64,000 nt of DNA from Chlamydiota bacterium. Lineage in GTDB: Bacteria > Chlamydiota > Chlamydiia > Chlamydiales > JAAZZY01. A program made the position numbers and the translations under genes. Shown here piece after piece: positions 2,035-11,833 of this stretch (the first letter of the stretch is position 1; each line of letters opens with the position of its first letter). Location of the stretch: the NCBI GenBank assembly GCA_022601335.1, contig JAJACV010000049.1, positions 1,176 to 65,175 on the forward strand, in the 5' to 3' direction. Under the pieces are notes generated by a model. It saw only the letters and a program-made list of their open reading frames with translations. It made no database searches and was not told where the DNA came from.

Positions 2035-2958
2035 ATGTATAAAAAAAGAGGTGTTTTAGCTCTCACGCTGATTATATTCTCCTCGATGCTTTTATTTTTG
2101 CCAGCCTGTCAGTCCAAAGAATGTAGAATCAGGGAAAAAAATAAGCGAGAAAATTTTAATAAGAGAAGGTCAGACGAAAAAGAACGCAAGACTAAAGGAA
2201 AACAAAGAAAAAAAGCTCAACATAACAGTGAAAAGGCTCAAAAAAAGTATCAAAAGCAGCAAAAGAAAAATTCTAAAAATAGATCTCCTCTTATACATAA
2301 AAATAATGTTTCTAAAGCTTCAAAGCACAAAAAAACTCACTTAAGCCAGCTTGTCAGTTATCAGCACTCTCCGTCTTGTGGCTATCGTAAGGGGACGCCA
2401 AACTACACAAATTCGCCCTACTGTTCGTCCGGGAATTGTTGTGGGGCTAGTGGATGTGGAACCTATGGATGTTCAAACTCTGACTCTTGTAGTGCCTCAT
2501 CCTGTTCCTTTGGATGTTGCGCGGCTTCTTGTTGTTCAAACTGTTGTGCGTACAATGGATCTTCCAAATCAAATAGTTCTGGAAATAGGTATCGTTTTTA
2601 TCAAAATAGAAATAGTAGCAGCTCTTCTACTTGTTGCAGTTCTTGCAACTCTTCAAGCTGTGGATCTTGTACCCCTTGTTGCGGGTATTCTAACTGCGGA
2701 TCTAGTGCCTGTTGCGGGTATTCAAATCGCTACAACAATCGATATAATCCTTGCTGTAACAATAATAGCTGTAGTCCCTATAGCTCTTGTTGCTCAAATT
2801 GCTGCACTCAAAATAATTGCTCAGGCTATAGCTGTTGTCCCCCTAGTTGTAATGAATGCAATAGCACTGTCAACTCAAACAGTTCTGCTACACGCTCTTC
2901 ATACAACAGACGCAGTGGAAGAAGGCAACCTTCTCATGCATCTAGGTATCGAAGGTAA
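2035..2958 (+). CDS. Lipoprotein with a Lys-rich linker and an extremely Cys/Ser/Asn-rich C-terminal half; function unknown
   Basis: GGAGGA lies 4 nt upstream of the ATG at 2035 (the ORF-track TTG at 2011 is less likely). Signal peptide plus lipobox LFLPAC. About 36 Cys, including 11 CC doublets, fall in the last ~195 aa (hand count). Confidence 0.7.
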   Translation: MYKKRGVLALTLIIFSSMLLFLPACQSKECRIREKNKRENFNKRRSDEKERKTKGKQRKKAQHNSEKAQKKYQKQQKKNSKNRSPLIHKNNVSKASKHKKTHLSQLVSYQHSPSCGYRKGTPNYTNSPYCSSGNCCGASGCGTYGCSNSDSCSASSCSFGCCAASCCSNCCAYNGSSKSNSSGNRYRFYQNRNSSSSSTCCSSCNSSSCGSCTPCCGYSNCGSSACCGYSNRYNNRYNPCCNNNSCSPYSSCCSNCCTQNNCSGYSCCPPSCNECNSTVNSNSSATRSSYNRRSGRRQPSHASRYRR

Positions 2959-2966
2959 AATAAACG

Positions 2967-3443
2967 TTAGATCAAGGCTCCTTCGAATGAAAGGAGTCTT
3001 TTTTTTATCTCAACCCCTCCATTGAACTCTCCCAATGTTTTATTTGATCTAATGACTCGATGACAGGGGACTATAAAAGGAAAGGGGTTCTTCTTACAAG
3101 AAGAGCCTACGGCTCTTACAGCCTTTGGAGAAGAAGTCATTTTTGAAACCTGCAGATAACTACAAGTTTCTCCAAAAGGTATTTTTGTAAGAGACTGCCA
3201 GACTTCTCGCTGAAACGGTGTGTAGTCTGAGAGTAATAAATTTATTTCGAAGGGAGTTTGCTTTTTAAGACTATAGCTTTTGAGCCATTTCTCGAGTAAA
3301 TACTGATTTTTTAGTGGGAGGTCTCCATGAAGATGCACTTCAAATTGAGAGTGAAGCGATAATTCAACTTTTAAAATCTGATTTGAGGAGACATGAAAAT
3401 GGACCAAAATTTGAGGGCCCTCTTCAAAAGTAAACACTTTCAC
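2967..3443 (-). CDS. ogt: Methylated-DNA--protein-cysteine methyltransferase
   Basis: Active-site motif IVPCHRVI, preceded by the helix-turn-helix region IPFGETCSY. Confidence 0.9.
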   Translation of the reverse strand: MKVFTFEEGPQILVHFHVSSNQILKVELSLHSQFEVHLHGDLPLKNQYLLEKWLKSYSLKKQTPFEINLLLSDYTPFQREVWQSLTKIPFGETCSYLQVSKMTSSPKAVRAVGSSCKKNPFPFIVPCHRVIRSNKTLGEFNGGVEIKKRLLSFEGALI

Positions 3444-3460: not shown

Positions 3461-4426
3461 TTATTGATTAACAAACTTCTCAAAATCTGATTTAGAAACT
3501 TTTTTGCCTTTATGATACCACTCTATGCGAACAACATCCTGAATATAGGTCTTAGAAATTCCATGTTTGAGATTGTTTTTCCAGGAAACTTCAGCAACAA
3601 CTTGGCCATTACTATTATAAACGAGTTCTACACCATTTTTCTTGTCTTTGAGGTAAGGGATTTCATTATGAGGAACTCCATCTTGATAAACGATAGTGAT
3701 TCCATCTTTAAATCCATCTTTCCAGCTTTCAAATACATCTGGAATTCCGTTTACTAAATACTGCTTTCTTTGCCCGTGAACCTTATTATTTTCATAGAGA
3801 GTAATGGTATATGGATCACCATTTCTGTGGAAAGTTGTGTTGGAGATGATTTCCCCATCCTTCACTTCCATTTTACTGAGGTATTCTCCATAAGGATTTC
3901 TTCGGATTTTTATCCCGCAGCCCTGTGCTACTTTTGCTTCGATTTCGTTATTATTTGCGAAATATTCTCCGTCGATGAGCTTGCCGTTTTTCCACGTTTC
4001 AATATTTTGAGGGTTTCCATTTTCAAACCAACGTGTCACCTGAGTTTGGGTGAGAGAGATGAATTCAATTTTCTTTTTTGGGACTCCAGATGTGTAGTGA
4101 TGTACTTCGGAGAGTAAATGCCCGTTTTTGTAATGTTCTTCTTTTTGTGTCACAAAACTATGTGGAAAACTATGCGTCACAGAGCCTTCCAGTTTAGCAT
4201 CAACATAATTTTGGGTTACAATTGTCCCATCTGCTCGAGTCACTACCACTTGGCCATTTGATCCTCGATTGCGCCAGTCATTTTCTGTCAAAGTTACACC
4301 GTATTTATGAATAAAAACAGTACTGACATTATTTTTGTTAGGGCTTTGACAAGCACTAAATAGACAAAGGCCGCAGCCTAAGAGTAGAGGGATAGATCTC
4401 TTTTTGAGCATAAAGCTAAGCTCCAT
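3461..4426 (-). CDS. MORN-variant (YwqK-like) repeat lipoprotein
   Basis: Signal peptide with lipobox LFSAC. Repeated Y..G......W..GK..G units are typical of the MORN repeat variant. An alternative start is the ATG at 4411. Confidence 0.75.
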   Translation of the reverse strand: MELSFMLKKRSIPLLLGCGLCLFSACQSPNKNNVSTVFIHKYGVTLTENDWRNRGSNGQVVVTRADGTIVTQNYVDAKLEGSVTHSFPHSFVTQKEEHYKNGHLLSEVHHYTSGVPKKKIEFISLTQTQVTRWFENGNPQNIETWKNGKLIDGEYFANNNEIEAKVAQGCGIKIRRNPYGEYLSKMEVKDGEIISNTTFHRNGDPYTITLYENNKVHGQRKQYLVNGIPDVFESWKDGFKDGITIVYQDGVPHNEIPYLKDKKNGVELVYNSNGQVVAEVSWKNNLKHGISKTYIQDVVRIEWYHKGKKVSKSDFEKFVNQ

Positions 4427-10882: not shown

Positions 10883-11833
10883 ATGAAAAAACTTTGTTTT
10901 TACTGTTTTACCTTTTTAAGTCTTTGTGTTTTTAACACAAGCTTATCTTGTGAATCCCATGCCTCTTTATCTGAGAGTCAAACACCCCTGCCTATTGTGC
11001 GCTCAGAGCTATTAATCTCTGAGGACCTAAAATTTTCAGCGCCTTTTAGAGATTTATTAACTCTTATGGATATTTCTCCAAACTTAGATATTCCGAATGT
11101 TGTAAAAGAAACGCAAAACCAATGGTTTGCTAGAAAAGAGCGTTGGTTAATAGAGGATACTCTTGCGGAGAAAAGGGCAGAGGCCTTGCCTCTCTTAGAT
11201 CAACTAGGCTGTTTAAAAAAAATAGACCCAGTTAAAAAGCAATATGATCAAGCTGTTCTTTTAGGATCGACAGTTTATGGAATGCGTCCTAAAATTAAGC
11301 AATTAGTTTCTCTTTGGAATCAAGGAGTTCGGTTTGAAAAAATTATATTTTTAGGAGCTGATTGCATCCATGATTTAAATAGAGAATTACCTCGCCTAAT
11401 GAATTTGGATTACTCTGGTTATCCTTTTAAAAGTAATTGGGAAAAACCTGAAAAGTTGCCTCAAACAGAAATGGAGATGATGAAGTGCGCCTGGGATCAA
11501 ACAGAAATTCCAGAGAGTATGAAGAATGTACCAGTAGTTTTTATTTCGACTCCAATGCAGCAGAAACCAGATGGATCTTTAAGACGGGCAAATACAAAAG
11601 ATACTTTAGTCTCTTGGGTTGAACACGAAGATACATTTGAGAAAAATTGTCTCTTTTTTTCGATACAACCCTATGTTGGCTACCAAGATACTGTTATAAG
11701 GTCTATTGTTCCAGCATCTGTAAATATTGAAACAGTGGGTTTGTCTGGCAATGAAAACCTGCCTTTAAACGTTCACCTAGATAATTTAGCTAAATGGCTC
11801 TACTCAGAAGCTAAAATGCAAAATCTCTATTAA
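10883..11833 (+). CDS. Secreted hypothetical protein (weak YdcF/DUF218-like pattern)
   Basis: Clear N-terminal signal peptide. The central AVLLGSTVYGMRP...IIFLG pattern is reminiscent of DUF218 but is not diagnostic. Confidence 0.45.
   Translation: MKKLCFYCFTFLSLCVFNTSLSCESHASLSESQTPLPIVRSELLISEDLKFSAPFRDLLTLMDISPNLDIPNVVKETQNQWFARKERWLIEDTLAEKRAEALPLLDQLGCLKKIDPVKKQYDQAVLLGSTVYGMRPKIKQLVSLWNQGVRFEKIIFLGADCIHDLNRELPRLMNLDYSGYPFKSNWEKPEKLPQTEMEMMKCAWDQTEIPESMKNVPVVFISTPMQQKPDGSLRRANTKDTLVSWVEHEDTFEKNCLFFSIQPYVGYQDTVIRSIVPASVNIETVGLSGNENLPLNVHLDNLAKWLYSEAKMQNLY

Follow-up and report, generated by a model that had tools for sequence, protein, structure and literature searches.

Disulfide-cross-linked cysteine-rich proteins are the accepted stand-in for a peptidoglycan sacculus in the infectious particles of chlamydiae, and the known players, OmcA, OmcB and MOMP, come from a few cultured families. 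The outer-membrane complex of the elementary body is held by disulfides among these three proteins, and it has been proposed that OmcA, via its lipid anchor, fastens the periplasmic network to the outer membrane (PMC3561449; PMC13254160). Some chlamydial lineages have been reported to carry neither OmcA nor OmcB (PMC6490308). Here, we describe a gene for a Cys-rich lipoprotein at positions 2035 to 2958 (plus strand) of a 64-kb stretch of DNA (referred to as the window from here on) that comes from the metagenome-assembled genome (MAG) "Chlamydiae bacterium O_S4.2_7" (S4CHLAM7, GCA_022601335.1; 1.68 Mb, 36.6% GC), obtained from a sponge and placed in the unclassified lineage MCF-D (PMC9666466, Dharamshi et al. 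2022). The supplement of the paper describing this MAG contains no OmcA or OmcB annotations (PMC9666466). The upstream gene (974 to 1927) is identical to MCH9634415.1, locus tag S4CHLAM7_11640 of O_S4.2_7, in agreement with the chlamydial setting assumed when the gene was first noticed from the DNA letters (the original prediction). Judged by comparison with its relatives, the open reading frame (ORF) is a genuine protein-coding gene under purifying selection, and the deposited annotation of the locus translates the wrong frame. The lipoprotein family to which it belongs is, on the sequences at hand, new and of distinct architecture and, as far as we have seen, confined to an uncultured lineage. 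We give a probability of roughly one half to its product being a membrane-anchored, disulfide-cross-linking envelope protein, OmcA-like in its action and not demonstrably a member of the OmcA family.

The coding sequence (307 amino acids [aa] plus the stop codon) starts with the ATG at 2035, 3 nucleotides downstream from a ribosome-binding site read from the sequence (GGAGGA, 2026 to 2031), and ends with the TAA at 2956 to 2958. Direct reading of the translation confirmed the three-part layout that had been proposed, namely, a lipobox, a K/R/Q/E stretch and a Cys-rich half. The signal peptide (residues 1 to 25, MYKKRGVLALTLIIFSSMLLFLPAC; 2035 to 2109) has a basic n-region followed by a hydrophobic core and the lipobox L-P-A-C, whose Cys25 is predicted to receive the lipid. 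In nine of nine family members (the window protein and its eight counterparts, see below), a Cys with A, S or G in front of it comes straight after the hydrophobic core, while position -3 is mostly Leu rather than a small residue, which disfavors processing by signal peptidase I. The product is probably exported by a lipoprotein-type signal and lipid anchored at Cys25. In Escherichia coli, lipoproteins with Gln at position +2 are sorted to the outer membrane and those with Asp are retained in the inner membrane. The residue that follows Cys25 is Gln, which would direct the protein to the outer membrane if the E. coli rule applied in chlamydiae.

The second part is a polybasic spacer rich in K, R, Q and E (residues 27 to 106; 2113 to 2352), delimited by composition and with just a handful of hydrophobic residues; the slightly longer segment from residue 27 to 115 contains 22 K, 8 R, 8 Q, 8 N and 6 E. 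It is followed by a hinge motif, VSYQHSPSCGYRKGTPNY (2353 to 2406), with the family pattern V-x-Y-Q...C-x-Y-R-x-x-T-P-x-Y. The third part, delimited by composition and alignment, is a low-complexity domain rich in Cys, Ser, Asn, Gly and Tyr (residues 125 to 291; 2407 to 2907) that includes the conserved blocks FGCCAxxCCSxCC, NRYNNRYN and C-T-x-N-x-C-x-G-Y-S-C-C as well as a duplicated block, CCGYSN...CCGYSN, readable directly in the sequence (2677 to 2727, with copies at 2677 to 2694 and 2710 to 2727). The protein closes with a basic tail rich in Ser and Arg, again defined by composition (last 16 residues, RRSGRRQPSHASRYRR; 2908 to 2955), and its C terminus is ...SRYRR. Taken together, residues 116 to 307 (192 aa) contain 35 Cys (ca. 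18%), including 11 CC doublets, along with 50 Ser, 27 Asn, 16 Gly, 15 Tyr and 14 Arg, and just 2 Phe, 1 Val, 1 Asp and 1 Glu. These values are very close to those first estimated (about 36 Cys with 11 CC in about 195 residues), and the near lack of hydrophobic and acidic residues and the basic tail that had been noted at the same time are both evident. The Cys residues of this half show CC, CxxC and Cx4C spacings, and the window protein has no CxC. The whole protein has 38 Cys (12.4%), which makes it an outlier, since all other ATG-started ORFs of at least 150 aa in the window have 5% Cys or less. The mature protein would have about 283 aa, a net charge of ca. +37 and an isoelectric point (pI) of 9.4. 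Tandem Repeats Finder detected no tandem DNA repeat under the Cys-rich half, indicating that this region is not a microsatellite artifact.

Relatives were found via homologues of the neighboring rhodanese-domain protein, whose contigs provided eight related loci (designated by L numbers). Their gene order is rpsD (minus strand), the rhodanese gene (plus), a gene X (plus), a gene of the MGMT type (minus), a MORN-repeat lipoprotein gene (minus) and pheT (minus), with the exceptions of L004, which has two inserted kinase genes, and L012, in which no MGMT gene was called. Gene X was a Cys-rich lipoprotein gene in eight of the eight loci, in each case read in the frame that runs on from a signal peptide. 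The window protein (307 aa) and those of L009 (422 aa), L010 (414 aa), L011 (362 aa) and L012 (353 aa) constitute the long forms, and the rhodanese proteins encoded next to these four orthologues are 67 to 79% identical to that of the window. All four share the same three parts and the same slot (rhodanese-like gene, X, MGMT). The elements common to the long forms are the lipobox, the K/R/E/Q spacer, the hinge, the three blocks named above and the tail, which is rich in S, R and K in every orthologue, whereas the length of the spacer varies from ca. 80 to ca. 205 aa. Residue +2 after the lipobox Cys is Gln, Asn or Ser. Alignment of the five sequences yielded 28 invariant columns, half of them Cys; the columns fall mainly into the hinge and the Cys-rich domain, which are better conserved than the spacer. 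The hinge residues V107, Y109, Q110, C115, Y117, R118, T121, P122 and Y124 are common to all five long forms, and except for gaps adjacent to V107, these columns vary synonymously (e.g., CGT versus AGA for Arg). The Cys-rich halves of the long forms resemble each other beyond their composition (z = 6 to 12; 0 of 300 shuffles reached the observed score), and even so, the number and spacing of Cys differ widely between orthologues.

The other four loci have, in the same slot, short forms of 92 to 218 aa that lack the spacer: L013 (218 aa, 18.8% Cys), L014 (from MAG S4CHLAM6), L015 and L004 (92 aa). Their rhodanese neighbors are 60 to 65% identical to that of the window. The similarity between short and long forms did not exceed that expected from composition (z of ca. 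1), and we consider the short forms positional and compositional counterparts whose homology to the long ones is plausible. Because they lack the spacer and keep both the slot and the Cys-rich composition, the conserved core of the family would be the Cys-rich part. The nine mature proteins are all basic (pI 8.9 to 9.7, net charge +11 to +57), with 8.5 to 19% Cys and full lengths from 92 to 422 aa. The slot was found without a Cys-rich gene in L019 (64%), L018 (57%), a Rhabdochlamydiaceae MAG (L016) and Protochlamydia (L017).

Two particular cases were observed among these loci. The spacer of the L009 protein (L009:6087-7352) has repeated Cys-bearing units (REYCKSIR, EIECLKKSRY and EIEYCKAIRAKER), which suggests that in some members the helical spacer itself could be linked by disulfides. 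In L004 (L004:5769..8195, minus strand), two paralogous genes similar to Ser/Thr protein kinases (396 and 400 aa) lie between the Cys-rich lipoprotein and MGMT genes, an assignment that is based on the motif HRDIKxxN, spotted by eye in the translations.

The locus contains a second, overlapping ORF in the +1 frame (2351 to 3025, plus strand; 224 aa), rich in V, L, I and A, that spans the entire Cys-rich half and that we consider spurious. The deposited GenBank protein of the locus (MCH9634416.1, S4CHLAM7_11650) is this +1 product, and gene calling on the ENA copy of the contig took the same frame, as it also did in the relative L010 (P0125). The comparison with relatives points to the opposite assignment. 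The Cys-rich frame has no internal stops in nine of nine syntenic genes and is the sole frame of that kind, so that the conservation of the frame in relatives, a point raised with the original prediction, is borne out. In the +1 frame, the relatives have from 3 to 13 stops per gene, 2 of them within the Cys-rich half of L012. Across the five long forms, codon position 3 varies at 25 of the 28 invariant residues, both TGT and TGC are used at 12 of the 14 invariant Cys columns, and invariant Arg residues alternate between CGT and AGA. None of these changes affects a residue in the Cys-rich frame, and in the +1 frame they would be replacements, which argues that the former is the gene. The same applies to the two DNA copies of CCGYSN, which differ at two bases (TCT/TCA and AAC/AAT), synonymous in the Cys-rich frame and nonsynonymous in the +1 frame. 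In addition, signal peptide, spacer and hinge run on into the Cys-rich half in a single frame in five genomes. Other measures were less informative. Synonymous codon likelihood, trained on 32 genes of the window and giving values of ca. 0 for true frames and ca. -6 for ordinary +1 frames, failed to separate the two (the Cys-rich frame had a z of -1.07, and the +1 frame one of -0.57), and position-specific divergence in the DNA alignments, which was near saturation, weakly favored the Cys-rich frame. The +1 frame stays open for a structural reason: a stop codon there requires T as the second base of a true-frame codon; such codons specify hydrophobic residues, of which the Cys-rich half has almost none, and the +1 frame is therefore open automatically. 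We consider the question of the frame settled by the stop counts across orthologues together with the synonymous variation at invariant residues.

Standard homology searches did not retrieve the family. At an E value of ≤10, none of the nine members matched any Pfam family, including PF03503 (OmcA), PF03504 (OmcB) and the keratin-associated and metallothionein families. NCBIfam provided nothing relevant for the window protein or the other members, and a profile search against PDB sequences gave only chance matches to basic or helical proteins. Hence, no homology to a characterized family outside the envelope was found in Pfam, NCBIfam or PDB, and the label "keratin-associated-protein-like" that had been applied to the Cys-rich half holds for its composition and fails as a family assignment. 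A phmmer search with the protein against 1.84 billion representatives gave no match, nor did homologue searches with the protein and with the family profile (billions of proteins) or a search of genome contigs with the Cys-rich protein; a scan of metagenomes with the neighbor gene recovered distant, nonsyntenic loci alone. The window protein is missing from a collection of 15 billion proteins, and so are the correct-frame proteins of L009, L011, L012, L013 and L014, despite the presence of called genes on their contigs. We attribute these null results to low-complexity correction and to entries absent from the databases, not to a lack of relatives, which surfaced at once by synteny. The family is effectively invisible to hidden Markov model and word-index searches.

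A structure of the window protein was predicted with AlphaFold2 from the single sequence. Besides a signal-peptide helix (residues 7 to 21), the model has one long helix at residues 28 to 81 (54 residues; predicted local distance difference test [pLDDT] of ca. 90 to 95) that would measure about 8 nm if real. Its scarcity of hydrophobic residues makes the spacer unfit for a coiled coil. Over nearly all of residues 92 to 307, the pLDDT is below 50, and no globular fold is predicted for the Cys-rich half. The predicted helix and strongly varying length of the "polylysine linker", the competing +1 ORF and the existence of a syntenic family with long and short forms had not been noticed in the original prediction.

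The original prediction had offered two roles, an envelope cross-linker and a thiol or metal buffer, and either would suit an exported, lipid-anchored chlamydial protein with 12% Cys and a pI of 9.4. Several of these features led us to favor a role in cross-linking of the envelope. Cys accounts for half of the invariant columns, that is, of the most conserved positions; a composition of Tyr, Gly, Ser, Arg and Cys together with a freely varying length is typical of matrix proteins, not of enzymes or metal sites, and no catalytic or metal-cluster signature was found. The combination of a Cys-rich half without globular fold and a long spacer helix predicted with confidence points in the same direction, as does the fact that chlamydial elementary bodies are stabilized by disulfide-linked Cys-rich proteins. 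According to this proposal, the ca. 36 thiols would pair into intermolecular disulfides in the oxidizing periplasm of an extracellular stage similar to the elementary body, with other copies of the protein and Cys-bearing outer-membrane proteins as partners. The result would be a cross-linked protein layer tethered to the membrane through the lipid anchor. Anionic surfaces, e.g., lipid A, the headgroups of phospholipids or the acidic periplasmic faces of porins, might serve as docking sites for the basic spacer and tail; the periplasmic face of the Chlamydia muridarum MOMP is electronegative (PMC13254160). On host entry, the layer would become looser through reduction.

A number of observations weigh against this proposal. 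The nine members match neither the OmcA nor the OmcB model, there is no omcB adjacent to the gene, and the window has no other ATG-started ORF of at least 150 aa with more than 5% Cys. The fairly close L018 and L019 have no Cys-rich gene in the slot, so the gene may be dispensable or located elsewhere in them. With regard to the anchor, Pro at position -2 of the lipobox is atypical, and three short forms (L013:6040-6693, L014:6052-6591 and L015:6055-6519) have Asp or Glu at +2 (GCDY, GCEY), which, compared to the Gln, Asn or Ser of the long forms, would mean a different membrane sorting under the E. coli rule. Finally, the predicted structure is a single-sequence model, and helix predictions on stretches rich in K, E, R and Q can be overconfident.

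A more speculative version of the cross-linking role, which we regard as doubtful, is that the rigid layer of the infectious stage might be built from a disordered, lipid-anchored "sticker" domain rich in Arg, Tyr, Ser and Asn rather than from a folded lattice of the OmcB type. Such domains would self-associate beneath the outer membrane into a gel or condensate, which dozens of disulfides would then fix, with the charged single-helix spacer of variable length setting the distance to the membrane, and the class could have gone unseen through wrong-frame calls and the discarding of low-complexity sequences. If true, this could also explain the lineages reported without OmcA and OmcB.

The protein could alternatively be a surface-exposed polybasic adhesin, a lipoprotein flipped to the outside of the cell, with the K/R-rich spacer and the S/R tail binding sulfated glycans of the sponge or of a protist host and the Cys-rich half merely fixing the protein in the envelope. 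The net charge of +37 of the mature protein and the basic nature of the whole family would fit such a role, and there is a precedent in OmcB, a documented glycosaminoglycan-binding adhesin of Chlamydia whose basic N terminus binds heparan sulfate (PMC6795091). The fast divergence and variable length of the spacer would also suit a host-facing molecule. However, the short forms have no spacer and keep the slot and the Cys-rich composition, and the invariant columns concentrate in the hinge and the Cys-rich domain, with the spacer less conserved, which makes an adhesin unlikely.

Rather improbable, in our opinion, is a periplasmic metal or thiol buffer, i.e., a metallothionein-like protein on a membrane anchor that would act as a sink for Cu, Zn or Cd or as a redox buffer in a metal-rich sponge habitat. 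Classical metallothioneins contain no aromatic residues. The 35 Cys in 192 residues with CC, CxxC and Cx4C spacings, the abundance of Ser, Asn and Gly, as in metallothioneins, and the sponge host would be compatible with this function, but the Cys-rich half has 15 Tyr, no CxC spacing and no match to a metallothionein family at the E value used. Moreover, an exported thiol-rich protein would be expected to be oxidized in the periplasm, and the variable number and spacing of Cys between orthologues are unlike those of defined metal clusters. Both the adhesin and the buffer would appear to suit the conservation pattern less well than the cross-linker does.

Finally, we give next to no credit to the possibility that the Cys-rich frame is a compositional artifact and that the real product, if any, is the +1 ORF as in GenBank: gene callers picked that frame here and in L010 and codon usage does not tell the two apart, but the +1 ORF has no ribosome-binding site, starts with TTG or GTG, crosses a terminator-like hairpin (see below), overlaps the convergent gene by 59 nucleotides and is interrupted by stops in the relatives, including the two in the Cys-rich half of L012, whereas the silent changes at conserved residues, the continuity with signal peptide, spacer and hinge in five genomes and the near absence of T at position 2, which explains the open +1 frame, all fit the Cys-rich frame.

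Two further candidates were rejected. A functional tie to the rhodanese-domain gene, as a persulfide carrier, has no support, since that gene is present without the Cys-rich gene in L016 to L019 and the enzyme is of a cytoplasmic type. A precursor of a ribosomally synthesized and posttranslationally modified peptide or bacteriocin does not fit the presence of a lipobox, the lack of a maturase nearby or the housekeeping nature of the neighbors.

Regarding the surroundings of the gene, seven of the nine family genes as extracted (the window gene, L009 to L013 and L004) have a GGAGG-type site 5' of their start. A promoter scan detected no sigma-70-type promoter upstream of the Cys-rich gene. A terminator-like hairpin followed by T8 (2974 to 3006, plus strand) begins 16 nucleotides past the stop of the Cys-rich frame. 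This element sits within the last codons of the convergent MGMT-type gene, and its T run is the reverse complement of conserved KK(R) codons. The Cys-rich gene is flanked by the UPF0176 rhodanese-domain gene and by this MGMT-type gene (PF01035; 2967 to 3443, minus strand), behind which there is a second predicted lipoprotein of 321 aa (3461 to 4426, minus strand), with lipobox LFSAC and faint MORN_2 repeats. This second lipoprotein is kept beside MGMT and pheT in the related loci that have a called gene there. Farther along the window, the 316-aa ORF at 10883 to 11833 (plus strand) begins with a hydrophobic leader that contains Cys (MKKLCFYCFTFLSLCVFNTSLSC...), has no recorded Pfam match and may encode a further exported protein.

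The locus shows that a different and much larger Cys-rich lipoprotein, with a built-in polybasic predicted helix, exists in one environmental lineage at least, MCF-D. The functional kind, chlamydial Cys-rich envelope lipoproteins, was already known; what the locus adds is the finding that such a gene is misannotated and escapes routine protein searches. Owing to the wrong-frame annotation, the absent entries and the empty phmmer and profile searches, surveys of protein databases that conclude that there are "no cysteine-rich envelope proteins" may overlook genes of this type.

When the protein is compared with known systems, the Tyr content, the absence of CxC, the Cys spacing that changes from one orthologue to another and the lack of a Pfam match all set it apart from metallothioneins. 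CotY and ExsY of Bacillus, CdeC of Clostridioides difficile and the keratin-associated proteins have extreme Cys contents and CC doublets, and they presumably harden a resistant layer through disulfides. The likeness to them is compositional alone; location and lineage are different, and none of their families was matched in Pfam. In Lpp (Braun's lipoprotein) of Enterobacteria, the helix has about 56 residues, a length comparable to the 54 residues predicted here, and the N-terminal lipid anchor is also shared, while the C-terminal part of the new protein would likewise bind covalently to a structural layer of the envelope. The spacer, however, is almost devoid of hydrophobic residues, so that neither the heptad repeats nor the trimeric coiled coil of Lpp is expected, and the link would be made by disulfides to proteins rather than by a C-terminal Lys, absent here, to peptidoglycan; there is no homology between the two.

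Among chlamydial proteins, the 60-kDa Cys-rich OmcB also joins a basic segment to a Cys-rich envelope protein and has been proposed as a periplasmic scaffold or adhesin. It is predicted to consist of folded immunoglobulin-like domains (PMC13254160), whereas the Cys-rich half described here has no predicted fold, a much higher Cys density and no similarity to the OmcB model (Chlam_OMP6). The closest parallel is OmcA, likewise chlamydial, a small Cys-rich outer-membrane lipoprotein of Chlamydiaceae and Parachlamydiaceae, with an N-terminal lipoprotein signal, very high Cys (ca. 15%, comparable to the 12.4% overall and 18% in the C-terminal half found here), no enzymatic domain and a presumed role as a periplasmic disulfide cross-linker held by a lipid anchor; in size, OmcA is even matched by the 92-aa protein of L004, the farthest of the syntenic counterparts. 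Of the traits that define OmcA, the lipobox signal is present, while the sequence model (Chlam_OMP3), the size and the adjacency to omcB are not. As the original prediction had it, the 307-aa protein is larger than OmcA (about threefold, with a mature form of ca. 283 aa compared to ca. 9 to 12 kDa), has another architecture, with three parts that include a polybasic, predicted-helical spacer of ca. 80 aa or more and a low-complexity domain rich in Ser, Asn, Tyr and Arg, and is not encoded beside omcB. Its place, in the window and in the eight related loci, is between the UPF0176 rhodanese and MGMT genes. The protein would unite cross-linking from a lipid anchor, the role of OmcA, with a function as a spacer that recalls Lpp, with no detectable sequence kinship to either one. 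What it does share in full are the traits of its own family, i.e., the slot, the lipobox, the spacer, the hinge, the Cys-rich domain and the S/R tail.

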